NCBI GenBank assembly: GCA_046881885.1 | Contig: JBKSMP010000006.1 | Coordinates: 50,273 to 82,272 of the forward strand | Origin: Opitutales bacterium | GTDB taxonomy: Bacteria; Verrucomicrobiota; Verrucomicrobiia; Opitutales; UBA9783 | Length of the DNA stretch: 32,000 nucleotides | Reading direction: 5' to 3' | Part shown: piece after piece, positions 1 through 20,475 of the stretch | Numbering within the stretch: the first letter of the stretch is position 1 | Layout: the number at the start of each line of letters is the position of its first letter | Notes under the pieces: model-generated | What the model saw: the letters and a program-made list of their open reading frames with translations, nothing else | What the model was told of the DNA's origin: nothing | Databases searched by the model: none | Translations under genes and position numbers: made by a program

Positions 1-542
1 TGATCAAAAAAAATATTATTGGAATTCTAGCGTTAATAGCATCAAATACTATTTGTTCTGCTGACATTTATAAAGATTATCATGAAGCATCAAAAACTAT
101 TACGAAGAAGATTTTGAATGATGAAGATCTACTATCTTTTTCGAAAAGTTTTCGTATAGAAGATGTTACGAGTTTCTTTGAAAATATGATTTTAGCTTCT
201 CATGCTTTAAACAGAAAAGATAAAGCTCTATTGGATGCTGCATTAAACAATTTTGCCCCATTGTTTGAAAAACCTCATTTATTAAAAAAATGTTTTAACA
301 GTTTTTGTACATTGTTTGGGCATAGAAAATATGCTAGACATTTATCCTTAGCAGCAATACGTAGTAACGCTAAAGAAATTAATATATTTATCTATTTGTG
401 CAAGAAAATGGTAGAATCAACAATGTTAAATTTGCCTGCAAATATTGCTGTAATTATTGAAAATTACAAAAAAGATATAAAACTCTCTAAAGAATTTGGT
501 TTGGAATATGATTATGATGAGCAAATAAAAGCTTTGAATTGA
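1..542 (+). CDS. Small secreted helical protein with an acidic EYDYDE motif near the C-terminus; the 5' end lies at or just beyond the window edge
   Basis: Frame 3 is open from nt 3 to the TGA at 540-542; the ORF track lists it only from the internal TTG at 114. Translation from nt 3 reads IKKNIIGILALIASNTICSA/DIYKDY, a Sec-type signal peptide. Nt 1-2 are TG, so an A just left of the window would give ATG-ATC-AAA. No catalytic motif was recognised. Confidence 0.5.
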   Translation, partial: IKKNIIGILALIASNTICSADIYKDYHEASKTITKKILNDEDLLSFSKSFRIEDVTSFFENMILASHALNRKDKALLDAALNNFAPLFEKPHLLKKCFNSFCTLFGHRKYARHLSLAAIRSNAKEINIFIYLCKKMVESTMLNLPANIAVIIENYKKDIKLSKEFGLEYDYDEQIKALN

Positions 543-617
543 GATTTTTATAAAATCTGTATTAAAATTTAGCATTATAAAGTGAACTAAAAACCGATAT
601 GTATGCTTTTATGAGAA

Positions 618-2387
618 ATGAAAAAATTATTTTTTATCTTTGAATTATTTATTCTTCAATTTTGTTTTGCAAGCGATTGGGAAAAGCTATTTTTTTCAGA
701 TGATGAGTCTATTTTCATGGAAATAGAAGATACGGATAAAGGAGAGGAGGATAATATAAACAATTTTGTAATGCCTGTTTATCCTCTTCAATGTAATAAT
801 GACTTAGTTTTTTATTTTTTCAACACAGGACAAGGTAATTGTACTTTAGTAAAACAGGGGGACAAAGCTTTGTTAATTGATTGTGGCGGAAGCAGTGCAA
901 TAGCTTTTGATAAAACTTTTACGAAATGTTTAGGAGAAGCTCTTATTGAATGTGTCATTATTACTCATCCTCATGCTGATCATTGTAATTTTTTACAAAA
1001 AATTTCACAAGAGCATTTTTCTGAAGAGGCTTGTTTGATTATTGGTGGACCAAGTGAATGGGAAGCAGACGAAAAAGGTAAGAAGATTAAAAAAGATATA
1101 AATGTTTTTGTTAACGCTTTCGGTAACATTTTCAAAAACAAGTGTTACATTTCTGATGATGGAATAGTATATAAAGTAGGATCGCCTCTTTGTTTTTGTA
1201 TACCAAAATTAGAAAATTTTTTGAAATATTTATTCAAAGGAGTCGAATTTAATTTCCTAAGATTTGGTAATGAGTTATTCGATAAAAGTGATTTAAATTC
1301 TTATTCTTTAGTTTTTAGCATAACTTATAAAAACAATAGTATTTTATTTACAGGGGATTCCACAGGTGATGCTTTTGATAGGTTTCTAAGTAAAAAGCGA
1401 AAGAAAGTTTTTCAAAAGTATCTTGTTCAAAGAAATAAGAAAATAATTAAGAATATTAATATTTTTGTTATGCCCCATCATGGTACAGACACTGAGAGTA
1501 GTTGGTATTGGACTGTTCGTATTAATAAGATCAATCATTTTAATTTAGTTGGTGCAATTGTTTGTGTTCATCCCGCTACCTCTCCTTATGGGCATGCAAG
1601 ACGTTGGGTAAGAGACTTAAGGTTCCCTCCGTATGCGCGTATGCCTAAAGGAAATCGATTTATTGGTTATAATATAAAAGGTAAAAAAGGAAGAGGTGCT
1701 AACACTTATGATCGTTTTATAAAAGAAACTAAAAATAGACTGTATGAAACAGGGCTTTTTACTTATGGGATTGTTCTTGTTTTTTCAGAATCAGGTAAGA
1801 TTCATATTTTGAATTCTCCGAATGATACAAATCTTACACATTTGCCTAAAAATGGTGAAGAGAAAGATGATATGGGTAGCGAACCACAATATCCTATTGT
1901 TTCAGTTGGGCAAAATCATGAAACTTTTGACGTTCCCAATGATGGTAATTGTGGAGTTTGGGCTATTATGGCAAATTTAAACGATATTCATTTTAAAGAA
2001 GCAACAAATAGTATGGGATATCGTATAGCAACAGCAACCGAGAAACAATATGAGGCTATGAATGTCCTGCGCCAAGAAGTTGCAGCGCAAATTGAAGAAG
2101 AAACACAACAAAAATCGCGTATAAAGGGAGATAGTACATTTCGTAGGCAAAATACTGAAGAAACTATAAATCTTGACTATTGGCTTCAGTTGGAAGATTT
2201 CGGCATTTTTGCAAAATACTTTAACCGTCCTATTGTAATACAAATAGGAATGGGCCAGGCAATTCGGTATGAAGCAGATGGAAGTATATCAGGTTTTGCT
2301 CCATTTGATCAACTGCTTGCTGATGATTCCATTTTGATTTATTATGATGGGCAGACTCACTATCAAGCCATTAAAAGGAAAGAGTAA
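618..2387 (+). CDS. Secreted two-domain enzyme: ComEC/Rec2-type metallo-beta-lactamase-fold hydrolase fused to a C-terminal OTU-family cysteine protease (deubiquitinase-like)
   Basis: N-terminus MKKLFFIFELFILQFCFA looks like a signal peptide. MBL motifs present: FFNTGQGNCTLV, LLIDCGG, THPHADH (HxHxDH, nt 966-983), SILFTGDS, MPHHGT (nt 1470-1484). OTU motifs present: DVPNDGNCGVWA (Cys codon 1950-1952) and C-terminal YYDGQTHYQAI. Confidence 0.8.
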   Translation: MKKLFFIFELFILQFCFASDWEKLFFSDDESIFMEIEDTDKGEEDNINNFVMPVYPLQCNNDLVFYFFNTGQGNCTLVKQGDKALLIDCGGSSAIAFDKTFTKCLGEALIECVIITHPHADHCNFLQKISQEHFSEEACLIIGGPSEWEADEKGKKIKKDINVFVNAFGNIFKNKCYISDDGIVYKVGSPLCFCIPKLENFLKYLFKGVEFNFLRFGNELFDKSDLNSYSLVFSITYKNNSILFTGDSTGDAFDRFLSKKRKKVFQKYLVQRNKKIIKNINIFVMPHHGTDTESSWYWTVRINKINHFNLVGAIVCVHPATSPYGHARRWVRDLRFPPYARMPKGNRFIGYNIKGKKGRGANTYDRFIKETKNRLYETGLFTYGIVLVFSESGKIHILNSPNDTNLTHLPKNGEEKDDMGSEPQYPIVSVGQNHETFDVPNDGNCGVWAIMANLNDIHFKEATNSMGYRIATATEKQYEAMNVLRQEVAAQIEEETQQKSRIKGDSTFRRQNTEETINLDYWLQLEDFGIFAKYFNRPIVIQIGMGQAIRYEADGSISGFAPFDQLLADDSILIYYDGQTHYQAIKRKE

Positions 2388-2446
2388 AATTAATTCAAAT
2401 TAGAAATTGTTAAATTTATTATAAAACAATTTTGTATTTGATTTAA

Positions 2447-2647
2447 TCATTTCATTTTAAGTTTTTGTTGGCGAACTTAAGCATTGGTCATACGCTGATG
2501 ATATTCGATTTGGCGCAAAAGCATCAGTTAACGTTTTATGATGCATCTTATTTGGAGCTTGCAATAGAGTTAAAGCTTCCGCTTGCAACGTATGATCAAC
2601 AACTTATCGAAGCAGCAAAAGCTGAAGGCATTCCGCTTGTTGAGTAA
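2447..2647 (+). pseudogene. 5'-truncated PIN-domain (VapC-like) toxin remnant
   Basis: The translation ...MIFDLAQKHQLTFYDASYLELAIELKLPLATYDQQLIEAAKAEGIPLVE aligns with the C-terminal roughly 60 aa of the intact PIN protein at 13521-13934 (IDIFHNAQKYNLTFYDAAYLQLAIDKTLPLATYDKQLIYAAEQEGLQLLC). The N-terminal half with the first acidic residues, and any antitoxin gene, are missing. An in-frame stop lies at 2444-2446. Confidence 0.6.
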
Positions 2648-2804
2648 GTGTAGGTTTTAAATAATTCCTCTAGTCCAAGAGTTTTAAATAAGGATTAAAG
2701 ATGTCGATTTTTACAGTTAATTTCGACAAGTGCGTTTGCGTTTTGTGTACTTGTGGCATTTTCATGTGGACAAAACGTGAACATGATCACATAATTAACA
2801 TATA

Positions 2805-4103
2805 ATGGAACGATTGGCATTAAAACGATTAATTGAGTGGAAAGAGAAGAAGGAGAAAAAGCCATTGATTATTCAAGGTGCTCGCCAGGTAGGAAAAACT
2901 TGGCTTATGAAAACCTTTGGGGCTAGTTGTTACAAAAAAGTTGCTTATATTAACTTTACGAATAATCAAGAAGCACAACGCCTATTTGAAGCAAGCTATC
3001 ATGTAGAAAGAATAATTTCTGGATTAAGTTTGTTGACGGAAGTTGCGATTACCATTGAAGATACATTGATTATTTTCGATGAAATACAGGAATGCGAAAA
3101 AGCGCTTAATGCTCTAAAATTTTTTAACGAAAATGCGCCGCAATATGCGATTATCGCGGCAGGAAGCTTATTGGGAGTTGCCGTAAAACACAAAAAAATG
3201 TCTTTTCCAGTAGGACAAGTGGAATTTTTAAATCTCTATCCGTTAAGTTTTTATGAATTTTTAAAAGCACTTGGAGAAGATAAGCTTTTAGAAGTTATGC
3301 TCGATAAAAATGCAGCTTTATTGCCTGTCGTAAGTGATAAATGCATTCATTTATTAAAGCAATATTTCTATGTTGGCGGTATGCCAGAAGTAGTACAATC
3401 ATTTGTTAACGTAAGGGATTTTGAACAAGTCAGAGTCTTACAAAATCAACTCTTATTGGGGTATCAAGCTGATTTTTCAAAGTATACCGAAGGTTATGTG
3501 ATTCCCAAAATTCATGCGATTTGGGATTCTATTCCCGTTCAACTTGCCAAAGAAAACAAAAAGTTTGTGTACAAAACCTTAGGACCAACAGCACGTTCAC
3601 GAGACTATGAGTCTGCAATGGAATGGTTATTAATGTGTGGATTGGTTTATAAAGTAGCCAAAATCACGAAGCCAGCCATCCCATTGAGCGCTTACGAAGA
3701 ACCTATTTTTAAATTGTATACGATGGATTGCGGATTGCTATGCGCAAAAGCTTCATTAGACGCCAAAACAATTTTAGAAGGGAATCGTATTTTCGAAGAA
3801 TTTAAAGGCGCGCTTACTGAACAATATGTTTTGCAAACACTCAACTTATTTGAACGTTTTCATGTTTCTTATTGGGCCTCCAACCTAGCCGAAGTGGATT
3901 TTGTCATCCAGGCGCAAGGATCCATCATCCCGATAGAAGTAAAAGCCAGTACAAATTTGCGAGCCCGTAGCTTAAAATCCTATCGAGAAAAATATAACCC
4001 TACGATTGCCATTCGTACCTCTCTGTCCAATTTTGAACTCAATAACGGCCTTCATAATCTTCCGCTGTATTACTTGGAAACAAGACTAAAGGAGTTTAAG
4101 TAA
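2805..4103 (+). CDS. AAA+ ATPase of the COG1373 type (AAA_14 N-domain plus DUF4143-like C-domain)
   Basis: Walker A GARQVGKTWL and Walker B-like LIIFDEIQ are present. Length (432 aa) and layout match the paralogue at 9758-11032. The C-terminal EVDFVI...IPIEVK resembles a restriction-endonuclease-like fold motif typical of this family. Confidence 0.8.
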   Translation: MERLALKRLIEWKEKKEKKPLIIQGARQVGKTWLMKTFGASCYKKVAYINFTNNQEAQRLFEASYHVERIISGLSLLTEVAITIEDTLIIFDEIQECEKALNALKFFNENAPQYAIIAAGSLLGVAVKHKKMSFPVGQVEFLNLYPLSFYEFLKALGEDKLLEVMLDKNAALLPVVSDKCIHLLKQYFYVGGMPEVVQSFVNVRDFEQVRVLQNQLLLGYQADFSKYTEGYVIPKIHAIWDSIPVQLAKENKKFVYKTLGPTARSRDYESAMEWLLMCGLVYKVAKITKPAIPLSAYEEPIFKLYTMDCGLLCAKASLDAKTILEGNRIFEEFKGALTEQYVLQTLNLFERFHVSYWASNLAEVDFVIQAQGSIIPIEVKASTNLRARSLKSYREKYNPTIAIRTSLSNFELNNGLHNLPLYYLETRLKEFK

Positions 4104-4314
4104 ATAAGGCAAGAAACGCATATGTTATGCTTTTTGCGTCATAAGAGCGTACACGTGTCAGATTTTGTAGTTGATGTGTGTATGTTTAAAATTGCTTCTA
4201 TCTGATGCGGAGCAAAAAGGACCACGGGTTTACCCGTGGGTATCTATCTAACAGTTGTAAAGAAAACCATAGTGTTGCCTGTATTTTTCTACTTTTTGAA
4301 CCAACCTCTAAAAT

Positions 4315-4344
4315 AATGTTTGGCATTATTTAATGCCAAACATT
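4315..4344. terminator. Perfect 30-bp palindrome between convergent genes; candidate bidirectional terminator or protein-binding site
   Basis: aatgtttggcatta-tt-taatgccaaacatt has 14-bp perfect arms. It lies between the stop of 2805-4103 (+) and the stop of 4415-4909 (-). There is no long T-run, so terminator function is uncertain. Confidence 0.35.
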
Positions 4345-4414
4345 ACGAAAGAATACTCTCACTATAAAAATCGGATCGTAAAATAATACCTTTTACAATT
4401 TAAACCTCAAGTTT

Positions 4415-4909
4415 TTATTCGCAATCTTCGTCGTAATCATACTCTTCATCGTATGGATCACGTTCAAGATAAGCTAAATAATCTTCTTTTATAGTTTCTG
4501 GATTTCTACCCTCTTCTCGTAATTTTTGACAAAATTGCTCTTCTAATTTCGACCAATCAACTGCACTAGTAGTCTTTTTCTCTTCTACAAAAAATTTATA
4601 AAAATCAATACAAATGCGATACCCTTCTTCTAAGTTTTTAATAACATCATTTAAATACAACAAACATCTCACATAACATATTTTTTCTAAAAGACTTTCT
4701 TTTTTTTCCCAAGCAGGATAATTCAAAGAGAGTCCAAGTCGCTCTATTCGATGCTTTTGTTCTTTTAAAAAAGAAACTTCATTTGAAGAAAATTCCTTTT
4801 TTTCAACGAGTTCATTAATTTTTGTATAAAATTCATTTAACTCATTTGCCATTAAATAATTCATTAAACCTCCGATAAACAACACACACAAAACTTTCAT
4901 TTTTTTCAT
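4415..4909 (-). CDS. Small secreted helical protein with a C-terminal acidic EYDYDE tail
   Basis: MKKMKVLCVLFIGGLMNYLMA is a signal-peptide-like N-terminus. The rest is charged and helical in character and ends in DPYDEEYDYDEDCE. The gene is divergently abutted to the OTU gene at 4939. Confidence 0.6.
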   Translation of the reverse strand: MKKMKVLCVLFIGGLMNYLMANELNEFYTKINELVEKKEFSSNEVSFLKEQKHRIERLGLSLNYPAWEKKESLLEKICYVRCLLYLNDVIKNLEEGYRICIDFYKFFVEEKKTTSAVDWSKLEEQFCQKLREEGRNPETIKEDYLAYLERDPYDEEYDYDEDCE

Positions 4910-4938
4910 AACTTATAGGATTGCAAAAAAATTTAAAA

Positions 4939-6579
4939 ATGTCAATCCAAAGCGGTACAAATCTTGCTATACGAAGAGATGTGAAAAAATTAATCCTTCT
5001 TTTTATTTTTAAGATTTTTGTAGCATGCTACATGGGTTTAGCTTGTAAACAACCCGTTCAATTGCCGTTTGAGTGCTTAAGCGACTTACAAAAGAAAGTT
5101 CATTATTTTCTGTGTCGGCAAGCAACACAAGTCTATCATAGTCGTCTAAAAAATTATTTTACAGCAGCTCTTGTCTTTTACTTTAAAGACAATGTACAAC
5201 CGCTTGTTTTATGGATTAGCTCTGGTCAAGAAAAAGAAGATGATATAACAACAAATGGTTGTTTTATTTCTGGCCGGATAGGTACAAATGCCACAAAAGC
5301 ATTTAAAAGTCTACATAACACTTTGAATGAAGGTTTTAATGAGTCATGGACAAGTTTAAATACGTACATAAGCAGGTCCATACAGAATGTAAAAAAACAC
5401 CAAAAGGTCTTTACCAAATTTCGTCTAACAGACAGCGAAATGCAATTTTTACATACAATTACCAATCAAAGAAACACAGAAGAACAATTAGCATATTCTC
5501 ATGCAATCATACAATCAATTCAAAATTATCCAAACCTGCAATTGCATCATATAGAACTCCATGGATTTACGACGCGCGATATGTGTCCTTGTTGCTTTCA
5601 ACACCTGCAAAATTTTCTAATTCAAGCCAATACGCAACAAACAAATCCGACAACATTTTTCGGAAGTTTATTAACACAATTAAATAAAAGCAATATTCCT
5701 GTCAGTTTTTTTATCTCATCTTTAGTGGAATTAGGTCATAACGAATACGCATGTAGTCGGTATCCAAGCTATCATAATGCATGCAAAGAAAAAATTGCGA
5801 TAGCATCTGCTCCAAGTGAAAAAACAATGCATTGTATCTTTTTACGCCCAAACAGTGCTCCTTTGTTGTCACTTAAAGGGAAAGAAACACAACAAAAACA
5901 AAAAATGGTTATAAGCACTGCAAACACTATTTTTTCCGAAACTAAAAAAATACAACAAGAAAATCCAAAACCAGGTGTCGAACAAATGCAATTGGGCAAT
6001 TTTAAACTAAAAAAAGACTCGGAATGTAAAACACGTATTATCGTTATTGATTTAAGAGACATTAATTTAGGAACTCAACCTGTAAGTCAAACTCCAGAAA
6101 CACTTACAATCGCCGGCCAACAATTCAGATTGCATGATGTCCCAAAAGATGGGAATTGCGGCTTTTGGTCTATTTTAGTTGCAAAAGGAGAGATTTCACA
6201 AGAAGAATTAGATAAATTAATGAGTGTTTGGGAAAAAATAAAAAGGGGAAAAAGATACTACCCTAATTGGAGTGAGTGTTCCGAAAATTTTTTGAATGAA
6301 GAACCAGAAATTGTTGAGAAAATGGTAAATTTGCGTGCGGATTGCGAATTGAACAATCTTGGAATTTGGATGGGAAATGATAATTTACAACAAATTTCAG
6401 GAGTAATACAAAGGCCAATTATACTTGTACAAAGGATCAAAAGATCACTTGCATACACTCTTTATGATGAAAACAATGATGGTATAATTTTAAAAGTGCA
6501 AAACATTAAATATCATAATAATGCGATTTTTATTTATTATGCTGACAATCATTTTCAAGCGATAGTTCCAGAGAGGTAA
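4939..6579 (+). CDS. Secreted or membrane-anchored two-domain protein: N-terminal domain with an HxE/CPCC metal-binding-like signature plus a C-terminal OTU-family cysteine protease
   Basis: OTU motifs: HDVPKDGNCGFWSI (Cys codon 6157-6159) and C-terminal IYYADNHFQAI. The N-terminus after ATG 4939 is MSIQSGTNLAIRRDVKKLILLFIFKIFVACYMGLAC, a signal/anchor with a possible lipobox-like Cys. The track starts at TTG 4921. No good SD precedes either start, so the start is uncertain. Confidence 0.75.
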   Translation: MSIQSGTNLAIRRDVKKLILLFIFKIFVACYMGLACKQPVQLPFECLSDLQKKVHYFLCRQATQVYHSRLKNYFTAALVFYFKDNVQPLVLWISSGQEKEDDITTNGCFISGRIGTNATKAFKSLHNTLNEGFNESWTSLNTYISRSIQNVKKHQKVFTKFRLTDSEMQFLHTITNQRNTEEQLAYSHAIIQSIQNYPNLQLHHIELHGFTTRDMCPCCFQHLQNFLIQANTQQTNPTTFFGSLLTQLNKSNIPVSFFISSLVELGHNEYACSRYPSYHNACKEKIAIASAPSEKTMHCIFLRPNSAPLLSLKGKETQQKQKMVISTANTIFSETKKIQQENPKPGVEQMQLGNFKLKKDSECKTRIIVIDLRDINLGTQPVSQTPETLTIAGQQFRLHDVPKDGNCGFWSILVAKGEISQEELDKLMSVWEKIKRGKRYYPNWSECSENFLNEEPEIVEKMVNLRADCELNNLGIWMGNDNLQQISGVIQRPIILVQRIKRSLAYTLYDENNDGIILKVQNIKYHNNAIFIYYADNHFQAIVPER

Positions 6580-6600
6580 CCAAGGATAATCAACACAAGC

Positions 6601-7221
6601 TTATTCTTTATTAAGCAGCGACAAGCCTTTTTCGGTGTAACTGCCATTAGGAGTAACGTAGCTGTATAAGCAGGTGTAGCCGATGTTGTATTGTTTACAT
6701 AAGTCTTTTACGCAAACGGATCTATCTTTCATTTCGCTGGCGATGACTTTTAAGATGGGTTTGGTCATTTTTTGAGGGCGGCCACCGCAGCGACCTCGGG
6801 CTCGTGCAGCTTTTAGGCCAGCTAGAGTACGTTCACGAATAAGGTCACGTTCATATTCCGCCAACACGCTAAAGAGGTTAAACATTAATTTACCGCTTGG
6901 AGTTGTTGTGTCGATACGCCCCATGGTTGAATCTAATACTTTTAGAGCAATACGGTTATCGTTTAAATAGTTTATGATTTGATTGAGGTGCACAAGATTA
7001 CGGCCAAGTCGATCGAGTTTCCAGACAACAAGGGTGTTGCCAGGTTGTAAGGCTTTCAAGCAAGCTTCTAATCCCGGCCGATCTTCTTTTTTACCTGACG
7101 CAAAGTCTTCATAAATTCGTTTTGAGGAAACCCCTTCTTTTTGCAAAGCATCGAGTTGCAAATCTAAAAGTTGAGATCCATCATTTTTTGATACGCGCAC
7201 ATACCCAATTAAACCCTCCAT
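6601..7221 (-). CDS. Serine recombinase (resolvase/invertase family)
   Basis: N-terminal catalytic motif IGYVRVSKNDGSQ...QLDAL is present, followed by YEDFASGKKEDRPGL, LVVWKLDRLGRN and a C-terminal HTH-like region. At 206 aa the length is typical of small serine recombinases. Confidence 0.9.
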   Translation of the reverse strand: MEGLIGYVRVSKNDGSQLLDLQLDALQKEGVSSKRIYEDFASGKKEDRPGLEACLKALQPGNTLVVWKLDRLGRNLVHLNQIINYLNDNRIALKVLDSTMGRIDTTTPSGKLMFNLFSVLAEYERDLIRERTLAGLKAARARGRCGGRPQKMTKPILKVIASEMKDRSVCVKDLCKQYNIGYTCLYSYVTPNGSYTEKGLSLLNKE

Positions 7222-7329
7222 ATTTTTTTACACTAACTTAATGACGTATAGGGTCAAGCGGAAATAGATTTAAGTTAACAGAAACGAAAAGAATTTTTTA
7301 AGAATTTGCGAAAAATAGGTTTTGGGGAA

Positions 7330-7401
7330 AAGTTTTCAAAAAACGAGGGGTTTCTGAAAACTTGTTGAGGGTTCGAGGGAAGCTTTTTTCAAAAAGTTCC
7401 C
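7330..7401. promoter_or_regulatory. Two adjacent imperfect palindromes upstream of the recombinase gene; candidate recombinase-binding or crossover sites
   Basis: Site A, 7330-7363: aagttttcaaaaaac-gaggg-gtttctgaaaactt. Site B, 7377-7401: gggaagctttttt-c-aaaaagttccc. Site A loosely resembles the AAAAC-N2-GGTTTT core of hix/gix-type sites as I recall it. The half-sites do not share one consensus. Confidence 0.25.
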
Positions 7402-7771
7402 TTATAAAATGAGGCTGCTCGCTCCAAACCCCAGGCAAGAGTAGCCCTCCTGCACCGGCAGATTTTTTTTACTGCAAGTTATAAAAAGGAACATTAGGCA
7501 CGAAAAATGCTACGATAAGTGTTAGATCTTATGATGATCGAAAACATTTCGACTAGCCTAGCTAGCGTAGGCTCCACCCTAGGGGCCCTTGGATCAGATA
7601 ATAAAACTAGAATACATCCATCCTTAATGGTGCCAGCAAGTCCGTCAAGCACTTGCCTGGGTCTAATTGTAATAACATTCCTGCAAAACGTGTTCTCCAA
7701 GTTACCCTTATGCGGTATTTGGAGTTTGTAGGATCAATTTTAGTTTTAATTTTTTACTTTAAGGAGGTTTT

Positions 7772-9001
7772 ATGAGTATAGGAAGTTGGTCTGCTTCAAA
7801 AGGCATATCAAGTGGTAGAAATGCAACTGCAGATACAATGGAATGTTGTACACACTCTTTCATCGCGAATGCAGGCATAAAAGAAACAGAGTTGGTTTGG
7901 AATTTTTTCAATATGGTTGAGTTTTCAGGAGCAACTGTCAAGGGTATGAAATCTTTGGACTTTTCATCAGATTTTTCAATAAATATGCTAAAAGCTTTTG
8001 AAGAGTTTGATAATCTAGAACCTAAAGGCCTTATAACTCAACAGTTTACGGCACTTGCTCAAAAATGTGCAGATAAAGGTGTGAAGGTGTTGATTGGAGA
8101 AGATCCAAATCTTTCGAAAATATCAGGTATCTGTATTGAGAGTGGACGCTTAATAAATGATCATTATATTTTTATCAACATTTCAGAAGAATTGGTAAAA
8201 AAAGCAATGGAAAATCCTATATACGTCATTCAACAAGAAGGGGATAACATTCCTGAGATAAAAGCGATACCTTTAGGAAATCTTGTTGCAAGAACAATGG
8301 TTGCAGATTTCGATGATTCTAATTTGGTCGCTAAATGTGCTGTCTATTTATTATTTCATGAATTGTTTCATGTAAATTCCTATCATTTTGAATTTGCTGG
8401 TGACGGAACTTTAACAGATCCTGAGAATTTTGAAAAATCTCATAAATTTCCAGAAAATGTTAAAAGCGAAGATATTAATTTATTAATTGCTGGAAAATTT
8501 AGGTATGATGACCTCCGAAATGTTACAGAAGCTAAAACAGAGACAGAAATAAGGGTACCAGGAGAATATGAACTGTTACAAGCACTATATCCTAATAAAA
8601 AGATAATGCGGTTGTATGAAGGTAAATTTTTGGATTTTTCAAATCCAAAGGTTTTAGCGGCAGCTGTAAAAGTTGCAAGATTTGAAAATGACTGTTTAAA
8701 CTCAAAAAGTGATTCGCAACAACTTCTTAATAATGAAGAACTAGGTTGGGAAATTGAAACCTTTTTAAAAAAACATAAAGACAATAAAAATACATTTGAA
8801 TATAAATCCCTTGAGAAATTAAAAAATAACCTTAATAATTTTATAAAAATGCAGAAAAAACAATCTCTAGATTTTGTGCAAATTGACAATAGTGTATGGA
8901 AAGCACAAGCAGATGAGTATATGCAGGCAATGACAAAAAATTTAGAAAATACACAATTACAAAATGATATAAATAATGGAACCTATATTCCTAGCAAGTA
9001 A
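7772..9001 (+). CDS. HExxH zincin-like protein with no signal peptide; candidate metalloprotease effector
   Basis: A strong SD, AAGGAGG at 7761-7767, lies 4 nt before the ATG. HELFH is at nt 8357-8371 in the context AVYLLFHELFHVNSYH. The N-terminus MSIGSWSASKGISSGRNATADT is Ser-rich and lacks a hydrophobic signal. Confidence 0.6.
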   Translation: MSIGSWSASKGISSGRNATADTMECCTHSFIANAGIKETELVWNFFNMVEFSGATVKGMKSLDFSSDFSINMLKAFEEFDNLEPKGLITQQFTALAQKCADKGVKVLIGEDPNLSKISGICIESGRLINDHYIFINISEELVKKAMENPIYVIQQEGDNIPEIKAIPLGNLVARTMVADFDDSNLVAKCAVYLLFHELFHVNSYHFEFAGDGTLTDPENFEKSHKFPENVKSEDINLLIAGKFRYDDLRNVTEAKTETEIRVPGEYELLQALYPNKKIMRLYEGKFLDFSNPKVLAAAVKVARFENDCLNSKSDSQQLLNNEELGWEIETFLKKHKDNKNTFEYKSLEKLKNNLNNFIKMQKKQSLDFVQIDNSVWKAQADEYMQAMTKNLENTQLQNDINNGTYIPSK

Positions 9002-9038: not shown

Positions 9039-9683
9039 TTATTGTAAAGAACAATTTTTTAGTTGTTGTGTGGACCTTTTTAATTTTTGATTATTTATCG
9101 TTGGCTTATGCTCAATTGCTTCAAAAATACTACCTATTTCAGTTAAATTAGGAGAATATCGGTCTTTTATTTCTTTAATGTCTCTAAAATAAGTAAATAT
9201 TTTAGCTTCACAGTCTTTAGGTTTCCAACGATATACCATGGTATATAAACTATATGTAATAGCTTCGTAACAGTCATAATAACCTAATTCGATAGGAGGA
9301 AAATTTAATTTTTCATACCAAGTCAAAAGTAAAATATAGGCAAAAAATGGATAAGTCCGAGAAAATTCAGTGCCATCTTCAGCGTGCACATGAAACATTC
9401 TAAATTTATCTAAAATAATTTCCTCATCCAGATGAATTTTTATAGAACTATTTTGACTTTTACTTAAATCATAAGGAGGGTATTTTTCAAAAACACTAGG
9501 ATCTAATGCTTCTTTAAAGTAATTTTTGTAGGTTTCATCTTTGTATTTGGTTACAATCTTTTGCAAATACTCCACCTCTTCATTAGAAAAATGCAAAACA
9601 TGAGAGCAGTTAGGGACAAGTTTAGCCATGGTATAGGAGAGCGCTAGAAAAAGCACTATTAAGCTATTAAATAGATTTTTCAC
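9039..9683 (-). CDS. Secreted hypothetical protein
   Basis: A GTG start gives MKNLFNSLIVLFLALSYTMA, a signal peptide. It is a 214-aa ORF with no competing frame and no motif I can assign. Confidence 0.5.
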   Translation of the reverse strand: MKNLFNSLIVLFLALSYTMAKLVPNCSHVLHFSNEEVEYLQKIVTKYKDETYKNYFKEALDPSVFEKYPPYDLSKSQNSSIKIHLDEEIILDKFRMFHVHAEDGTEFSRTYPFFAYILLLTWYEKLNFPPIELGYYDCYEAITYSLYTMVYRWKPKDCEAKIFTYFRDIKEIKDRYSPNLTEIGSIFEAIEHKPTINNQKLKRSTQQLKNCSLQ

Positions 9684-9757: not shown

Positions 9758-11032
9758 TTACGGTTTCAAGCAGCCAATCGGGACGATAGTAATCCCATCT
9801 AGTCGTCTATAGGCATAAGGGGTCAAGCCTGTAAGAACCATTTTGAAGGCAGGTGGAGGTATGGGGGATTGTTCAATCTGAGAAGCTAATTTTTTTAAGG
9901 ATGAAATCGCTTCTTCAATAGCACGATCACCGCCTAATTTGATTTCGATGAGGCCATATTGACCGTTTGGCAAATGAATAACAGCGTCACATTCTAAGCC
10001 ACTTTTATCACGATAATGATACACATTGCCTCCTAAATAATCCGTATAAATACGTAAATCACGTATACAAAGATTTTCAAAAAACAAGCCCATTGTATGT
10101 AAGTCTTGAATAAGGTCTTGAGGACCAAGGCCTAAGGCTGCAGTACCGATAGAAGGGTCCGTAAAATACCGCGTATTGGAAGTTCTAATCGCTGTTTGAG
10201 AACGTAAGTTAGGATTCCAGGCTTCGGCTTCTTCGATAACAAAAATCCTCTTTAGGGCCGTAATATAGGAAGCAATTGTGTCTTCCGATAAGGTTTTTAA
10301 TTCATGATTCGATAAGTTTTGGTGAATTGACCGTAAGGTTGTTTGGGAAGCAATACCTCTGGCATAAGAACGCATAAGACGCCGAGCGCGTTCCGGATTG
10401 CGCTTGACGGTGTCTGTTTTTGAAATGTCGGTATCAACAACAACCGTATAGTAATCAAAGGCCTGCATTAAGGCAATTTTATCGGAACAGTCGAGCGCTT
10501 TTGGCCACCCACCACGACAAATAAAAAACGCAAGCTGATCGATATCTATAGTGGCACTTCCATCAATCGTTGTATTGGCTTCGAAAAGCTGTTTTAAAGA
10601 TACGTTACCATTAGATTCTCCAGATTCAAATAGGCTCATGGGCCTCATTAATAATTTTGTAATACGACCGATTCCGGAATGATGAATGTTGGAAGTATCT
10701 GCTGGGACGGATGATCCGGTTAGAATAAACTGCCCAAATTCGTTGCGTTGATCGACTTCAAAACGTACTGTATCCCATAAATTGGGTGCAATTTGCCACT
10801 CATCAATTAGGCGAGGCGTTTCTCCTTCAAGTAATTTCGAAGGTTTTAATTCTGCGAGTTCCAAGTTTTGTTTAACCTTGTGAGGTTCTTGCATATATAG
10901 TATGCTTTTAGCAACTTGACTCGCTGTTGTTGTTTTCCCGCACCACTTCGCTCCTTCAATTAAAACAGCACCTTTAGCTTTTAATTTTTCTTTTAAAACT
11001 TTGTCGACAATCCTCGCTTTGTAAGCTCCCAT
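9758..11032 (-). CDS. AAA+ ATPase of the COG1373 type (AAA_14 plus DUF4143-like); paralogue of 2805-4103
   Basis: Walker A GAKWCGKTTT and Walker B-like RLIDEWQ are present, with C-terminal ECDAVI...GLIEIKLG. The architecture matches the ATPase at 2805-4103. Confidence 0.8.
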   Translation of the reverse strand: MGAYKARIVDKVLKEKLKAKGAVLIEGAKWCGKTTTASQVAKSILYMQEPHKVKQNLELAELKPSKLLEGETPRLIDEWQIAPNLWDTVRFEVDQRNEFGQFILTGSSVPADTSNIHHSGIGRITKLLMRPMSLFESGESNGNVSLKQLFEANTTIDGSATIDIDQLAFFICRGGWPKALDCSDKIALMQAFDYYTVVVDTDISKTDTVKRNPERARRLMRSYARGIASQTTLRSIHQNLSNHELKTLSEDTIASYITALKRIFVIEEAEAWNPNLRSQTAIRTSNTRYFTDPSIGTAALGLGPQDLIQDLHTMGLFFENLCIRDLRIYTDYLGGNVYHYRDKSGLECDAVIHLPNGQYGLIEIKLGGDRAIEEAISSLKKLASQIEQSPIPPPAFKMVLTGLTPYAYRRLDGITIVPIGCLKP

Positions 11033-11320: not shown

Positions 11321-12022
11321 TTATCTATTACGTCGTATACCGCGCATAGCTGCCATTAAGTTGTTTGCTCTTGCCTTCAAAGGCAATACGCAATCATTCC
11401 ATTCATTTTGTCCAATGTTTGCTGGTCTTACATTGCAATCAACATATTGTACATAATCCTCCAAAGCATGATTTTGTACAAAATCATAAAACGCTCTACG
11501 TTGACTTCTTATTCTAGCAATTTGATTTTGTGTGTAAAATCTTACTTTATTTATGATAGGCCTTATATCAAAAGTAATATAATCATCATTTCCTGCAGAT
11601 AATTCATTCATACATGCCTGTATTGATGTTGCTAAGTCAACGTTGGCATAATAAGGCGGCAACCATATTGTCTGTCCATGATTTTGAAAGTCAATACAAT
11701 CGAGAGCTGTAAATAAACTAAAAAGACTATCTTCGTCATATTCAAAAAAAGGAAGATAGAGATTTGAGATGGTGCTTCCCATAAATACGTCATCATTTGT
11801 ATTTGAAGAAGAACTATACTCAAAAGCTTCCAAATTAACTCCATAGAAATTGGTTGTGTCCATAGGTTCAAACGTAGCTTCTTCCCATAATACATCATGG
11901 ACACAGAAGAAATGCTTGTAGTTTGTATTTCCTAAATTTCTTACTGCAAATACAGTATTGCTTGCTGTTGCTATTGTACCAACACTTAATAATACATTTT
12001 TTAATAATTTTTTGTAATTCAT
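11321..12022 (-). CDS. Secreted hypothetical protein
   Basis: The ATG at 12022 is preceded by GGAAGG (complement of 12031-12036) and gives MNYKKLLKNVLLSVGTIATASNTVFA, a signal peptide. The track's longer start at 12070 adds an implausible FFFSFKFK leader. The protein contains FFEYDEDS. Confidence 0.55.
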   Translation of the reverse strand: MNYKKLLKNVLLSVGTIATASNTVFAVRNLGNTNYKHFFCVHDVLWEEATFEPMDTTNFYGVNLEAFEYSSSSNTNDDVFMGSTISNLYLPFFEYDEDSLFSLFTALDCIDFQNHGQTIWLPPYYANVDLATSIQACMNELSAGNDDYITFDIRPIINKVRFYTQNQIARIRSQRRAFYDFVQNHALEDYVQYVDCNVRPANIGQNEWNDCVLPLKARANNLMAAMRGIRRNR

Positions 12023-12163
12023 ATTTTTTCCTTCCTTGGTTTTAAATTTAAAAGAGAAAAAGAAGATCAATTATTTTTTATTCTGTCAATATATTTTTTA
12101 AGTTTTGAGTAAAAGACTTGCCAGAAGGAAGGTTATACTTTATGGTTATAAAATATAAGAACT

Positions 12164-13075
12164 ATGAAGTATGAAGAAACTATTATTTTAGAAAAGATAG
12201 AAGCGAGTAAAAGGAAGCTATTGGAGTTATTATCACAAAAAGAACGGGTAGAACAACTTAATGCATGGTTAAAAACTGAATTGACGTATACGTCCAATGG
12301 ACTGGAAGGAAGCACATTAACGCGACAAGAAACAATTTTAGCGATTGAAGAGCAATTAACTTCTGGGTCCAAACCGATAAAACATTATTGGGAAGCCATT
12401 AATCATGCTAAAGCTTTTTCATGGATTTACGAACAAATACGAGCGGGTATTTGTATCAATGAAGCCTTTATTTTAGAAATTCATAAAAAGATTTTAGACG
12501 GTATAGATAGTTTAAATGCTGGATTTTATCGTTCTGTACGCGTTCGTATTTTAGGCTCAAGAACCATTTTGCCAAATCCGTTAAAAATTCCAGATTTAAT
12601 GCAAGAATTTTGTGATTGGTTAGTAAAAACGAAGCAATCACCTATCGAAAAAGCATTGGAAGCTCATTACCGCTTGGTAACCATTCATCCATTCATTGAT
12701 GGCAATGGTCGCACGGCACGTTTGTTGATGAATGCCATTTTGATGCAGGCTCAATACGCACCGATGATTATACGGCGCTTGGATCGAAAACGTTATTTGT
12801 CTTCTATTGAAAAGCGGCAGGTTGATGGACAAGGTGATTATTATCGGCGTTTTATGCTACAAGCCTTGAATCGTTCTCTAAAGATGGTTATTGCCCAATT
12901 AGATGAGCCTCAAAGTCATTCAGCTTCGAAAGGATTAACGATTTCTAAATTTGCTCAAAAAGTAAATTTGCCGGTTTCTACCGTTCGCTATTGGGTCAAA
13001 ATCGGAAAATTAAAGCCAGCTGCTTATTCAGATAGCGGTTACATGCTTTTTTCTCCTGATCAGACAGTGGAATAG
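12164..13075 (+). CDS. Class II Fic-domain protein (putative AMPylase) with a C-terminal MerR-type HTH
   Basis: The canonical Fic motif HPFIDGNGRTARLLMN is at nt 12686 onward. An N-terminal inhibitory-helix motif (S/T)xxxE(G/N) appears as SNGLEG (nt 12293-12310). The C-terminus LTISKFAQKVNLPVSTVRYWVKIGKLKPAAYSDSGYMLF matches the MerR N-terminal HTH pattern. Confidence 0.85.
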   Translation: MKYEETIILEKIEASKRKLLELLSQKERVEQLNAWLKTELTYTSNGLEGSTLTRQETILAIEEQLTSGSKPIKHYWEAINHAKAFSWIYEQIRAGICINEAFILEIHKKILDGIDSLNAGFYRSVRVRILGSRTILPNPLKIPDLMQEFCDWLVKTKQSPIEKALEAHYRLVTIHPFIDGNGRTARLLMNAILMQAQYAPMIIRRLDRKRYLSSIEKRQVDGQGDYYRRFMLQALNRSLKMVIAQLDEPQSHSASKGLTISKFAQKVNLPVSTVRYWVKIGKLKPAAYSDSGYMLFSPDQTVE

Positions 13076-13315: not shown

Positions 13316-13540
13316 ATGAATGTAATAGCCATAAGCCGATTTCGACAAAAACTTTATCAATTGGTTGCTAACATAAGGAATGAAGCTATTGTTTTTTCTT
13401 ATAAACATAAAAAATATCGCGTTATTGACGAAGAAGAGTATCAAAAGCTCGAGACGATGCAAATATGGAACAAATTTCCTAAGTTTAATATGAGTGCTGA
13501 AGCAGTAAAACAGGCTGTGAATGATGGACGTAAACATTAG
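13316..13540 (+). CDS. Phd/YefM-type antitoxin
   Basis: MNVIAISRFRQKLYQLVANIRNEAIVFSYKHKKYRVIDEEEYQKLE fits the Phd/YefM N-terminal pattern. At 74 aa, it overlaps the downstream PIN gene by 20 nt. Confidence 0.7.
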   Translation: MNVIAISRFRQKLYQLVANIRNEAIVFSYKHKKYRVIDEEEYQKLETMQIWNKFPKFNMSAEAVKQAVNDGRKH

Positions 13541-13934
13541 TGCTTTTGTCGTCGATAATTCTTGTCTTATTGAATGCATCGATAATCCCAATAAATTTCC
13601 ATTGTTTTTTGATTTGGATATTAAAAAATATACACCTCATTTGCTATTGTATGAATTAAGCAATGTGCTTTTAGGGAAAATAAAAAAGAACGTTATCGAT
13701 GCCCATAGAGCTTATGATGATATTATAGATCGTGTTGTGAAAATGCTCCATTTTGTGGATTATCCAAAAAACGAAAATGCAATTGATATTTTTCATAATG
13801 CTCAAAAATATAATTTAACGTTTTACGATGCTGCTTATTTGCAGTTAGCTATCGACAAAACTTTGCCCTTGGCGACATACGACAAACAGCTCATTTATGC
13901 AGCCGAACAAGAAGGTTTACAATTGCTTTGCTAG
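13521..13934 (+). CDS. vapC: PIN-domain toxin (VapC-like)
   Basis: 137 aa. An N-terminal acidic motif, FVVDNS, and the C-terminal LTFYDAAYLQLA...LATYDKQL are typical of PIN/VapC. The gene is coupled to an upstream antitoxin gene. Confidence 0.75.
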   Translation: MMDVNISAFVVDNSCLIECIDNPNKFPLFFDLDIKKYTPHLLLYELSNVLLGKIKKNVIDAHRAYDDIIDRVVKMLHFVDYPKNENAIDIFHNAQKYNLTFYDAAYLQLAIDKTLPLATYDKQLIYAAEQEGLQLLC

Positions 13935-14329: not shown

Positions 14330-15712
14330 ATGTTTATTCTAAATAAAGAAATAGTGAGAAAAATCTTTTCTCGTTCGATTGCTAAGGTTGTTGCTATTCT
14401 TAGTTTAACATCTCTTGTACAGGCTGCACAGTTTCATTTGCCACCTGGAACGCCGGGATTACAACATGAAAATGCTCAATCTCCCCTGAATCCTTTTATG
14501 GACTGTGTTCATATCCATATTCCCAATACAACTTGTCATTTATATTTTCCTATCGATGGTTCTCAGCCAACGACAACTGAAGCAGGACAATATTCTGGAG
14601 CAAGATTTGTTGGCCAACTTGGTGACGACTTAGTAACTGATTGGTGGGTGAGAGTGTTTGGCGGGAATAGGGCTGTGAATTGGTCTAGGCCAGATGACCA
14701 GCAATTACTAAACCAACCTCCAGATATTCCAATGGGGTTTGATATAAATGGTAATATTGCGCATATTATCAATGTAAAACACCTTTCACTTTGTGCAGGC
14801 TGGAATAGTCTTAGAATATCCTTTTGGCAGGCATTTCGCCAAATTGCTGCTGATCCTGTGGGACGGGTGCTTCTCTATCGATTGTTGATCGAAATTAGAA
14901 GGGTTGATAGTGACACCTCGACACAAGGATGTGAAGAAAAAGGAGATCGAGATAATGATGAGATTATTCGAGATGATGATATTAATAAAAAATGTCGTTC
15001 AATAAAAATTAATCAAGCAATAGAGGGTTGCTGTTTTAAAATAGGTGATAATGGTGCACAAATAGATTTTGAAGATTTAAATAGAGGTACATTTGTTTTT
15101 TACTTCGTGAAAAATCATGGTACATTGTTAACTAAAAATCAAGATCGTCCCGTTGATGTAGCTCTATTTCATGAAATGCTTCATTGGTTTCATTATTTGA
15201 GAAGATTGCAAAGAGTATTGGAAAATAAAAGTGGCAAACCTGATAGTTTTAAGTATGTTTTGCGTTGTTATTATGGAAACCAAACAGAATTGTGCGTTTG
15301 GGGACTGATTTGTAATGTGGAAGAAATTGCAACCATCCTAGGTTCACCTAATCATAATAATCAAGAGTTCATTAGATTAATGCATGAAGATGCGTTTTTG
15401 CTCGCCGGGAATCCAAATTTGATTAACAATCCCAATTTTATTATGGTCAACATAAATGGTGTTCCACAATACATTCCGTATAGCGAAAGGTTTTTAAATG
15501 GAGATGATTTGTCTGAAAATGCTTATCGTGCATCTAAAGATCTTCCTATTCGTTATGGACATGTAAATACGTCTATTAGTAGTTATAATATTTTTAATAT
15601 ACCTTCTCGTTTTATTTTAGCACATCGAGTAGCTTTTTATTGTTATTATGAAGTTACAGGACAAATTTTGAGAATGTGGAATTTTGGTCCTGGAGAAGCT
15701 ATTGCGATGTAA
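14330..15712 (+). CDS. Secreted HExxH zinc metalloprotease-like protein with an extended HExxHxxHxL signature
   Basis: The signal peptide is MFILNKEIVRKIFSRSIAKVVAILSLTSLVQAAQF. HEMLHWFHYL is at nt 15170-15199. Downstream are NVEEIATILG and LSENAYRASKDLPIRYGH. The HExxHxxHxL spacing matches my recollection of clostridial-neurotoxin and NleD/HopH1-type zincins, which is unverified. Confidence 0.65.
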   Translation: MFILNKEIVRKIFSRSIAKVVAILSLTSLVQAAQFHLPPGTPGLQHENAQSPLNPFMDCVHIHIPNTTCHLYFPIDGSQPTTTEAGQYSGARFVGQLGDDLVTDWWVRVFGGNRAVNWSRPDDQQLLNQPPDIPMGFDINGNIAHIINVKHLSLCAGWNSLRISFWQAFRQIAADPVGRVLLYRLLIEIRRVDSDTSTQGCEEKGDRDNDEIIRDDDINKKCRSIKINQAIEGCCFKIGDNGAQIDFEDLNRGTFVFYFVKNHGTLLTKNQDRPVDVALFHEMLHWFHYLRRLQRVLENKSGKPDSFKYVLRCYYGNQTELCVWGLICNVEEIATILGSPNHNNQEFIRLMHEDAFLLAGNPNLINNPNFIMVNINGVPQYIPYSERFLNGDDLSENAYRASKDLPIRYGHVNTSISSYNIFNIPSRFILAHRVAFYCYYEVTGQILRMWNFGPGEAIAM

Positions 15713-15765: not shown

Positions 15766-16164
15766 ATGAAAGTAAAAAATATAATATTGTATAGTAGTTT
15801 GTTTGTATCATCTCTTTTAAATGGGATGCCTGAAAAATTGCAAAAAGAAGCTGAAAATGCTGAAAACTCAATGTCTATTTTATTGGGCAAATTTTCAAAA
15901 ACAGATCTTGGAAATTTAAAAAAATGTTTAGAAGAAACTAAAAACAAATTGATGAAATATTCCCAAAAAGATACATCTGGAGATGCGTGGGATCATATTG
16001 CTATTCTAAAAATTGACTTATTGTTTTTAGAAGAATGTTCTGATATTTTGTTGGAAAAATCCACTTTGACACAAGATGAAAAAATGAAAAAAATGAAAAA
16101 ATGGTGTAATAAATCTTACAGATATGAAATTTACCTTGGACCAATTTTAAGAAAGCAACAATAA
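15766..16164 (+). CDS. Small secreted helical protein; tandem paralogue 1
   Basis: MKVKNIILYSSLFVSSLLNG is a signal-like N-terminus. The protein is 132 aa, charged and helical. It shares overall layout and a ...FLE/FLN...LEK...W...C motif order with the next gene. Confidence 0.55.
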   Translation: MKVKNIILYSSLFVSSLLNGMPEKLQKEAENAENSMSILLGKFSKTDLGNLKKCLEETKNKLMKYSQKDTSGDAWDHIAILKIDLLFLEECSDILLEKSTLTQDEKMKKMKKWCNKSYRYEIYLGPILRKQQ

Positions 16165-16338
16165 ATATCCTATAAAATCTTGAAAAACAATTAATAGTAA
16201 TTGATGGTAAAGAAGGATTGTTCAATTTCAATTAAAATCACATTTACCTCCATTCTAAAGAGCTCTGCAAATTTCTTGTGGGGCTCTTTTGTTTTGCCAT
16301 TCTTGACAATTTTCAAAACAATAATTAAAAGAAAAATC

Positions 16339-20200: not shown

Positions 20201-20475
20201 TTATTCTCCTCTAATATACGTGCATCTAAACATTCTTGAATAACATTTAAAAATTGTGTTCGTAAATCCGGATTCGGGAAAATCGTATCCGGATACTTGC
20301 GTATTGCCATTGACAGGTGCGTCAAAAAGAAAATTTTCTCTTCATTGGTATTCAGCTGCAGTTTGTTATACATTTGATTAATAACTTGTGGATCAAGCCA
20401 TTCTTTTAAAATGGACTGCATAATTACTTGTGTAATGTGAAAGGAAAGTTCGGGTATATTGGGATTCTCAATCAT
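20197..20475 (-). CDS. TyeA-like type III secretion gatekeeper subunit
   Basis: 92 aa, the same length as Yersinia TyeA. EKIFFLTHLSMAIRKYPDTIFPNPDLRTQFLNVIQECLDARILEENN lines up with the remembered TyeA sequence [47 protein letters not shown]. The start lies 2 nt after the stop of the upstream gene. Confidence 0.55.
   Translation of the reverse strand: MIENPNIPELSFHITQVIMQSILKEWLDPQVINQMYNKLQLNTNEEKIFFLTHLSMAIRKYPDTIFPNPDLRTQFLNVIQECLDARILEENN

Follow-up and report, generated by a model that had tools for sequence, protein, structure and literature searches.

The window analysed here, a 32,000-nucleotide (nt) stretch of contig JBKSMP010000006.1 with a low GC content (27–43%), comes from an uncultured, low-GC member of the Opitutales (Verrucomicrobiota) and opens with a variable conflict/effector island of 16.7 kb. 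At the start of this island lie two pairs of genes, each comprising a small protein (sp1 or sp2) and a large enzyme-like protein with a C-terminal OTU domain. The gene for sp1 precedes that of a protein with an MBL-type N-terminal head, and the gene for sp2 is divergent from that of a protein with a deaminase-like head (Table 1). All four products carry predicted N-termini of the signal peptidase I (SPase-I) type, as do all partners belonging to the two small-protein families, in agreement with the signal peptides first assigned to both small open reading frames (ORFs). The related loci used for comparison (designated by L numbers) come almost only from gut metagenome-assembled genomes (MAGs) labelled 'uncultured Opitutales', with one from a Hadza gut metagenome; most are short contigs from closely related gut Opitutales, and a metagenome scan gained one further locus.

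Table 1. Features of the two gene pairs and of associated genes. Positions are those of the window unless a contig is named; aa, amino acids.
Feature	Position	Strand	Details
sp1, 180-aa protein with Sec signal	1..542 (ORF 3-542)	+	EYDYDE at nt 504-521
MBL-OTU protein, 589 aa	618..2387	+	MFQ6722948.1, 'MBL fold metallo-hydrolase' (NCBI)
MBL-OTU protein, layout			signal peptide aa 1-18; acidic linker; MBL head aa ~60-400; OTU tail aa ~430-589
MBL-OTU protein, sites			HPHADH aa 117-122 (nt 966-983); Cys445 within nt 1941-1955; His581 within nt 2358-2372
AAA_14/DUF4143 ATPase genes	2805-4103; 9758-11032; L001 2-1024	+; -; 	three within ~12 kb
sp2, 164-aa protein with Sec signal	4415..4909	-	acidic Tyr-rich tail DPYDEEYDYDEDCE; EYDYDE at nt 4427-4444
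Divergent intergenic region, 71 nt	4910..4980		presumed shared promoter region
Deaminase-like-OTU protein, 532 aa, GTG start	4981..6579	+	MFQ6722952.1, 'OTU domain-containing protein' (NCBI)
Deaminase-like-OTU protein, layout			signal peptide; head aa ~21-290; OTU tail aa ~375-532
Deaminase-like head, motifs			RLxDSE nt 5431-5445; ELHGFTTRDMCPCC (CPCC nt 5584-5595); ISSLVEL; HCIFLR
Deaminase-like-OTU protein, OTU sites			Cys393 within nt 6148-6162; His524 within nt 6550-6564
Serine recombinase (resolvase/invertase)	6601..7221	-	Pfam Resolvase E 2.6e-43

The four proteins and their domains

The sp1 frame in the window is the 3' part of its gene, of which only the Met codon falls outside, as seen on the Logan contig L001. 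The protein starts with MIKKNIIGILALIASNTICSA/D and ends ...EFGLEYDYDEQIKALN, and sp2 runs from MKKMKVLCVLFIGGLMNYLMA/N to ...DPYDEEYDYDEDCE. For the second large gene, GTG 4981 is the most likely start, preferred on the basis of the NCBI model and of all orthologues, which begin MKKLI. With this start, sp2 and the gene, divergent as described in the original prediction, are separated by 71 nt rather than 29; gaps at orthologous loci are comparable (73 nt in L004). No strong match to the sigma-70 consensus was found within 4910–4980.

BLASTP of sp1 against sp2 gave no match, and profile–profile comparison with hhalign returned a probability of 0.6% with an alignment limited to the 10-residue tail. 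These results rule out a paralogous relationship, and the proposed 'duplicated gene pair' cannot be upheld for the small proteins. Searches of Pfam, NCBIfam, PADLOC and PHROGs with sp1 and sp2 yielded nothing credible, the nearest being a sub-threshold PADLOC match of sp2 to PDC-S26 (E = 0.0087).

The head of the first large protein matches Pfam Lactamase_B (E = 2.9e-12) and contains the motifs HxHxDH, TGD and HHG. The AlphaFold2 model (pLDDT 82.8, from an alignment of 36 sequences) has the MBL fold, so that both the motif and the fold of the superfamily are present. In a Foldseek search of the PDB, the best match was the C-terminal MBL domain of ComEC (9ic4; E = 2.6e-9, TM 0.68 on target), followed by the phosphorylcholine esterase Pce and RNase J/Z. 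There were also weak NCBIfam matches to ComEC and RNase Z and weak PADLOC matches to nuclease-type MBLs. By its structural matches to ComEC, Pce and RNase J/Z, the modelled head groups with the phosphodiesterases and nucleases of the superfamily, and the weak matches agree with this. Unlike ComEC, however, the protein encoded in the window is predicted to be soluble and secreted and is not part of a membrane DNA-uptake channel.

The head of the second large protein was more difficult to classify. Among homologues with 27–70% identity, the motifs RLxDSE, ELHGFTTRDMCPCC, ISSLVEL and HCIFLR are invariant, and the AlphaFold2 model (pLDDT 54, with a core of 70–87) contains a beta-alpha-beta-alpha-beta core in which DSE and CPCC lie at the N-termini of consecutive helices. 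This predicted core, with 'xSE' and 'CxxC' at those positions, resembles that of AID/APOBEC and of the bacterial toxin deaminases of the BURPS668_1122 family (PF14424). Three weak but concordant signals point in this direction. The 28 best PDB matches in Foldseek were all APOBEC/AID proteins, at E values of 0.03–0.1 obtained with a pLDDT-54 model; Pfam PF14424 (Toxin-deaminase) matched below threshold (E = 0.24); and hhalign against AID gave a weak alignment (E = 0.036, probability 1.4%) that set LHGFTTRDMCPCC..FL on VTWFTSWSPCYDC..FL of AID and the CPCC strand-helix on SWSPCYDC. At the positions of the canonical zinc motifs the head has C202 and C205 of a CxxC motif and the invariant Glu153, with an invariant Asp (of DSE) at the position of the first ligand. 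The head differs from AID/APOBEC and the toxin deaminases in having DSE instead of [HC]xE and a spacing of ~50 residues between the motifs, as against ~25–35. A profile search of the PDB gave no match; NCBIfam, PADLOC and PHROGs gave nothing credible; and a scan of viral contigs gave no match and no sign of phage carriage. Because of the Asp at the first zinc ligand and the lack of any significant score, we call the head deaminase-like and regard membership of the superfamily as unproven. It probably represents a new and very divergent family of deaminase-like enzymes.

The two large proteins align with one another over their C-terminal ~170 aa only (25% identity, E = 8e-9), consistent with the earlier proposal that they share an OTU module and differ in their heads. 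DGNCG and H[YF]Q are invariant in nine OTU tails, and in the pLDDT-83 model a helix (445–453) begins with Cys445 and the last strand (582–587) is bordered by His581. For a profile of the tails the best match was OTUD3 (E = 1.3e-3), and lower-ranking ones were nairovirus L OTU, OTUD7B and EschOTU. Members of the family matched Pfam OTU (E = 3.9e-4) and Otubain (E = 6.8e-4), the two tails of the window being below threshold. In a Foldseek comparison with BFVD, the MBL-OTU protein matched an OTU fragment of the L protein of Crimean-Congo haemorrhagic fever virus (E = 1.2e-3, TM 0.60 on target) and OTU proteins of iridovirus, CeV and tenuivirus; the A20 OTU was among the matches of the weaker model of the deaminase-like-OTU protein. 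With catalytic Cys and His motifs, profile similarity and fold all in agreement, the sequences and models identify the tails as OTU cysteine-protease domains (Pfam PF02338, clan CA), with putative deubiquitinase or Ubl-protease activity. The OTU tails of two orthologues of the deaminase-like-OTU protein, P0007/P0008 (L004 1023–2666), end in an additional acidic, Trp-rich segment (...GIGNWEDWEDSDEK), which the window protein does not have.

Although this module had been described as a constant tail, the OTU tails are only 24–54% identical to one another, and heads have exchanged them. Between the window and L003, identity is 67% for the MBL heads and 39% for their OTU tails, whereas the L003 tail is 54% identical to the other OTU tail of the window; likewise, the deaminase-like heads of the window and P0007 share 69% identity and their tails 38%. 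This discordance between head and tail identities indicates, at the level of the sequences compared, that OTU modules have been exchanged among heads by recombination, with the small genes staying with the heads. The idea of an OTU tail combined with variable heads is itself sound, since it occurs with MBL, deaminase-like, HExxH and other heads. A serine recombinase gene directly adjoins OTU-fusion cassettes in three contexts. In the window it is convergent with the deaminase-like-OTU gene and 22 nt from its 3' end; the arrangement in L004 (2687–3307) is the same, and in L025 (172–729) the resolvase flanks a pair with an HExxH-OTU protein. Since the resolvase abuts the OTU end, a shufflon-like switching of tails by an invertase was considered, but it finds no support here, as no inverted or direct crossover repeats were found in positions 1–9000.

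Linkage of the small genes to the catalytic heads

Conserved adjacency in other genomes had been named as a check on the pairing, and it was found for both small genes. Members of the sp1 family lie directly upstream, and on the same strand, of ComEC-like MBL genes in six lineages (the window, L003, L013, L016, L023 and L024), at 25–40% identity (for example, window versus L024, E = 1e-11; L013 versus L023, E = 1e-24). The two genes are separated by as little as 4 nt or overlap, with a start-stop overlap in L016. Members of the sp2 family are divergent from the deaminase-like head in eight lineages, with homologues beside heads in L002, L004, L005–8, L009, L010–12 (partial), L020, L021 and L026. 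Throughout these lineages, every sp1 homologue accompanies an MBL head and every sp2 homologue a deaminase-like head.

The OTU tail does not share this constancy. In four of the eight sp2 lineages (L005–8, L009, L010–12 and L020) the head has no OTU, in one the deaminase-like head carries a different C-terminal region, and the sp1 homologue of L023 adjoins an MBL-only protein (P0041) without OTU. Since sp2 homologues lie beside OTU-less heads and an sp1 homologue beside an MBL-only protein, the partner tracks the head and not the OTU tail. Thus, of the original suggestion of an effector with a cognate small partner, the conserved small secreted neighbour of each enzyme stands, and its assignment to the OTU module does not. 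These comparisons show two unrelated, head-specific and tightly linked families of accessory genes, as defined by sequence. A third type of head occurs in the HExxH zincin-OTU protein P0131 (L025 852–2898), beside which lie a resolvase gene and, divergently, the gene of a 169-aa secreted protein. The motif 'IWSKLEKSV' in this small neighbour recalls DWSKLEEQF of sp2, and BLASTP between the two gives only E = 0.29.

It is quite improbable that the small ORFs have no functional coupling to the enzymes and are independent secreted proteins or effectors that were co-inherited or co-mobilised with the enzyme genes in a resolvase-associated island. The examples are almost all confined to MAGs of a single narrow Opitutales clade, the island contains many other small secreted ORFs, and resolvases flank the cassettes, all of which would fit such an origin. 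Nevertheless, adjacency outlasts divergence to 20–35% identity and persists in changed genomic neighbourhoods: beside a SIS/CBS-domain (KdsD-like) gene in L009 and L026, flagellar genes in L020 and rpsT in L016. Orientation and spacing are also kept within each small-protein family, and in L016 the two genes show a start-stop overlap.

The feature that had first suggested a common function for the two small proteins was the hexapeptide EYDYDE in both tails. As had been reported, it is encoded by different codons at the two loci (GAA TAT GAT TAT GAT GAG at nt 504–521 in sp1; GAG TAT GAT TAC GAC GAA at nt 4444–4427, minus strand, in sp2). No DNA repeats link the loci, in accordance with the view that it is not a recent DNA copy; a recent duplication or gene conversion of the tails was likewise rejected, as such repeats are absent and the sp1 tail differs from that of an orthologue by simple point changes. 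By contrast, the proposed conservation at the peptide level does not survive comparison with relatives. Orthologues of sp1 with 93, 91 and 83% identity have ESDYNK or EFDYNK in place of EYDYDE and end ...EFGLESDYNKQVKALN or ...EFGLEFDYNKQVKALN, a few point substitutions away at the DNA level. More distant members of the family, ending ...ENYKQDLCLETSY, ...LGYNEQLRSL, ...QSYNRQMRAYHEGV and ...EKYIRQMKS, all lack the hexapeptide together with the whole C-terminal extension, and the tails of the sp1 family are neutral to basic. Absence of the tail from orthologues had been named beforehand as grounds for refutation, and for sp1 it applies. In most lineages of the sp2 family, C-termini are acidic and Tyr-rich (DPYDEEYDYDEDCE, DPYDEEYDEDYE, ...PPDDYYDY, ...EWPYDDDGGYTVEDFLNDEDEE... 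and ...EYPDSDTDESS...), with tail variants that also include EEYDEDYE and EWPYDDDGGY.

Shared hexapeptides are, moreover, to be expected among proteins of this composition. Four were found in common between non-homologous proteins among the 29 proteins of the window, and shuffled proteomes gave 1.9 +/- 1.5, with at least one in 82% of shuffles. The placement of EYDYDE in both tails is rarer (P about 1.6e-4 by local tail shuffling, in a test devised after the fact). The identity of the hexapeptide in sp1 and sp2 is a coincidence: the two proteins are non-homologous, hexapeptides are shared by chance, the motif is lost in sp1 orthologues, and the acidic tail recurs in sp2. The acidic Tyr-rich tail is a feature of sp2 only, of which EYDYDE is one variant, and in sp1 a few point substitutions within a C-terminal extension peculiar to its clade gave rise to the hexapeptide. 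The model in which both small proteins are one type of OTU-specific partner, with a functional EYDYDE tail perhaps sulfated or phosphorylated by a host, is therefore largely refuted and, in our estimate, very improbable. It drew on the identical hexapeptide with its different codons, on the rarity of its placement and on the fact that both small genes abut OTU-containing genes. Against these stand the lack of homology between the small proteins, the replacement of the motif in close sp1 orthologues and loss of the whole extension in distant ones, the presence of partners beside OTU-less heads, and the expectation of shared hexapeptides between unrelated proteins of the window. The case warns against reading a common function into a hexapeptide that two tails share, even when the codons differ.

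Possible roles of the small proteins

We tentatively propose that the small proteins are head-specific, periplasmic, inhibitor- or immunity-like binding partners of Sec-exported effectors or toxins, a reading to which we assign a probability of roughly 0.4–0.5 and which is drawn from sequence comparison. The region contains two independent two-gene cassettes, each of which pairs an enzyme with an accessory protein of about 150–220 aa, both Sec-exported: in the first, sp1 followed by a ComEC-type, phosphodiesterase/nuclease-like MBL head, and in the second, sp2 divergent from the previously unclassified deaminase-like head (D-S-E ... C-P-C-C). According to the proposal, each accessory protein would bind its cognate head in the periplasm and neutralise it until the enzyme is released. 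The acidic tail of sp2 may mimic nucleic acid towards the deaminase-like head, and the OTU tail would supply deubiquitinase (DUB) or protease activity in the target, or else a processing activity. A neutralising role is favoured because specificity follows the catalytic domain, because both heads resemble nucleic-acid-directed toxin domains, and because the genes lie in a conflict island. The presence of OTU domains and of injectisome genes is a hint that the target may be eukaryotic (the ubiquitin system of a host or protist) rather than rival bacteria, and the Sec signals argue against delivery by a type III secretion system.

Several observations weigh against this proposal. The partners are encoded upstream or divergently and are exported, whereas classical immunity genes lie downstream and, when the toxin attacks nucleic acids, have cytoplasmic products; a periplasmic inhibitor of a nuclease or deaminase whose substrates are likely to be cytoplasmic has no obvious role in self-protection and is not easily accounted for. 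Assignment of the second head as a deaminase is weak, given the pLDDT of 54, a Foldseek E value of ~0.03, the absence of a PDB sequence match and the Asp in place of a zinc-binding His/Cys. Two sp2 lineages (L009 and L021) do not have a strongly acidic tail, homology to sp1 could not be detected in the small ORF beside an OTU-less MBL paralogue in L004 (E = 0.15), and inherited synteny may account for part of the adjacency, most of the related contigs being short and from closely related gut Opitutales.

The same genetics, namely head specificity, tight linkage and export of both products, would also be seen if the small proteins were head-specific helpers, either periplasmic chaperones for folding or export or co-secreted subunits that form the delivery or receptor-binding part of a binary toxin. 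Exported partners suit co-secretion better than cytoplasmic self-protection, and the upstream position and translational coupling of sp1 (4-nt gap or overlap) suit stoichiometric co-production. As the small proteins have no similarity to known chaperone, usher or B-subunit families in Pfam, NCBIfam, PADLOC or PHROGs, we consider such a helper function possible, though unlikely. Also unlikely is an extended form of the inhibitor proposal, in which sp1 and sp2 would found new families of Sec-exported, head-specific inhibitors accompanying secreted nuclease-like and deaminase-like OTU fusion effectors of gut Verrucomicrobia, the sp2 tail would plug a new deaminase-fold enzyme with an Asp-Cys-Cys metal site as a nucleic-acid mimic, and resolvase-linked cassettes would reshuffle heads, tails and partners.

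The original prediction likened the locus to polymorphic toxin–immunity pairs, and the domain-specific logic of the partners agrees with this: each partner family is specific to one family of toxin-like domain (in the six and eight lineages above). The layout and gene order do not. Polymorphic toxins have a constant N-terminal trafficking region, a variable C-terminal toxin and an immunity gene directly downstream. Here, the variable catalytic heads are N-terminal, right behind the signal peptide, the OTU at the C-terminus can be lacking and is itself shuffled, and sp1 lies upstream on the same strand and sp2 divergently upstream. The cassettes therefore depart from the polymorphic-toxin layout. 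Pairs of the colicin E–Im and DddA–DddI type likewise have a small cognate protein specific for one nucleic-acid-enzyme domain, as proposed here, but their immunity genes are normally downstream, with cytoplasmic products, and their toxin domains C-terminal; the likeness drawn here is one of logic. Colicin Im proteins, which are acidic, exit the cell in complex with the toxin.

Exported, toxin-like multidomain proteins with an OTU papain-like peptidase at the extreme C-terminus and export of the Sec/type II secretion type have been described (Zhang et al. 2012, PMC3482391). The genes for these Tox-OTU proteins are found in host-associated bacteria and in conflict islands that are mobile, and some have a partner (immunity) gene next to them (PMC3482391). 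The window enzymes resemble them in their C-terminal OTU, their Sec-type export and the joining of OTU to other toxin domains. They differ in that the variable enzymatic domains are N-terminal, in that the partner is upstream or divergent, exported and specific to the head instead of the C-terminal domain, and in that the host is a gut Opitutales and not an endosymbiont of amoebae or arthropods. The earlier statement that no such system had been described is accordingly true of these particular families, and less so of their general plan, since C-terminal OTU domains on Sec/type II-exported toxin-like proteins and a toxin-plus-partner logic are already known (PMC3482391). A description of the MBL-OTU architecture was not found in the literature.

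The nearest analogue of the cassettes in layout is the CifA–CifB (CidA–CidB) system of Wolbachia, in which the product of the upstream gene forms a complex with a multidomain nuclease-fold enzyme, encoded downstream and fused to a DUB module (PMC11342252). These modules (Ulp1, OTU and PL-OTU) have been swapped repeatedly, and the loci are found in mobile contexts (PMC11342252). The analogy consists of an upstream partner and a nuclease-fold enzyme with swapped DUB modules; a sequence relationship is absent. The core of CifB has a PD-(D/E)xK nuclease fold, as opposed to the MBL or deaminase-like heads of the window. Furthermore, Cif proteins have no Sec signal peptides and act inside host cells, and CifA is large in comparison with the ~150-aa secreted partner here.

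If the pairing is functional, two new families of partner proteins are defined and, probably, a new and very divergent family of deaminase-like enzymes in gut-associated Opitutales MAGs. OTU protease modules would then be mobile additions to secreted enzymes outside the classical intracellular pathogens, and the cassettes would be candidates for host- or competitor-directed effectors of an uncultured member of the gut microbiota. They may also yield a new nucleic-acid-modifying enzyme together with its natural inhibitor. Overall, the finding is real but modest: it consists of two partner families, both new and head-specific, and, probably, a new deaminase-like family, on shuffled OTU modules.

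The surrounding island

In addition to the two gene pairs, the island contains the resolvase, three AAA_14/DUF4143 ATPases, a Fic protein, a PIN gene and a PIN fragment, and several secreted proteins without a family match; housekeeping genes and injectisome genes (SycN-like and TyeA) follow after 16.7 kb. One of the ATPases (2805–4103), the only one of the three tested, has PDC-S01, a candidate for phage defence in PADLOC, as a match (E = 1e-171). As a gene of the AAA_14/DUF4143 type also precedes the small-ORF/MBL pair in L004, these ATPases may belong to the cassette or else mark the island. The stretch from the ATPase gene to the 3' end of sp2 includes a perfect 15-bp palindrome (TAATGTTTGGCATTA tt TAATGCCAAACATTA; 4314–4345) that may either terminate transcription in both directions or bind a protein.

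The Fic-domain protein (12164–13075, plus strand) has a C-terminal MerR-type helix-turn-helix, and a Fic/RhuM gene is also found near the sp2 orthologue in L002. A 60-aa C-terminal fragment of a PIN domain (2465–2647, plus strand) and the full PIN gene (13521–13934, plus strand), 11 kb apart, have LPLATYD in common. The fragment is probably the remnant of a decayed toxin–antitoxin system, and a PIN-like fragment also ends contig L004. The secreted proteins without a family match are encoded at 7772–9001, 14330–15712, 15766–16164 and 16336–16710 on the plus strand and at 9039–9683 and 11321–12070 on the minus strand. No similarity of these proteins to sp1, sp2 or the P0131 head was detectable. 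Two of them have HExxH motifs (HEMLH and HELFH) and are adjoined by small secreted ORFs, and may therefore represent the same theme of an enzyme with a small secreted neighbour.

The injectisome-type genes (19814–21644, minus strand) encode a SycN-like chaperone (E = 8.9e-10) and a TyeA gatekeeper subunit (E = 2.3e-7). They are adjoined by a 388-aa ORF without a family match, whose position fits, as a guess, a YopN/CopN-like gatekeeper. Flagellar rod genes, assigned by eye, are present on L020, a contig of a related MAG. Two contigs with close orthologues of the cassettes, L018 and L019, are binned in MAGs labelled Muribaculaceae and Staphylococcaceae; all other matches are to Opitutales, and the two labels are probably due to binning error. 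Near the end of the window, a gene (29492–30826, minus strand) combines a diadenylate cyclase (DAC) domain with a PTS EIIA-2 domain at the N-terminus and a DacZ_P sensor domain.

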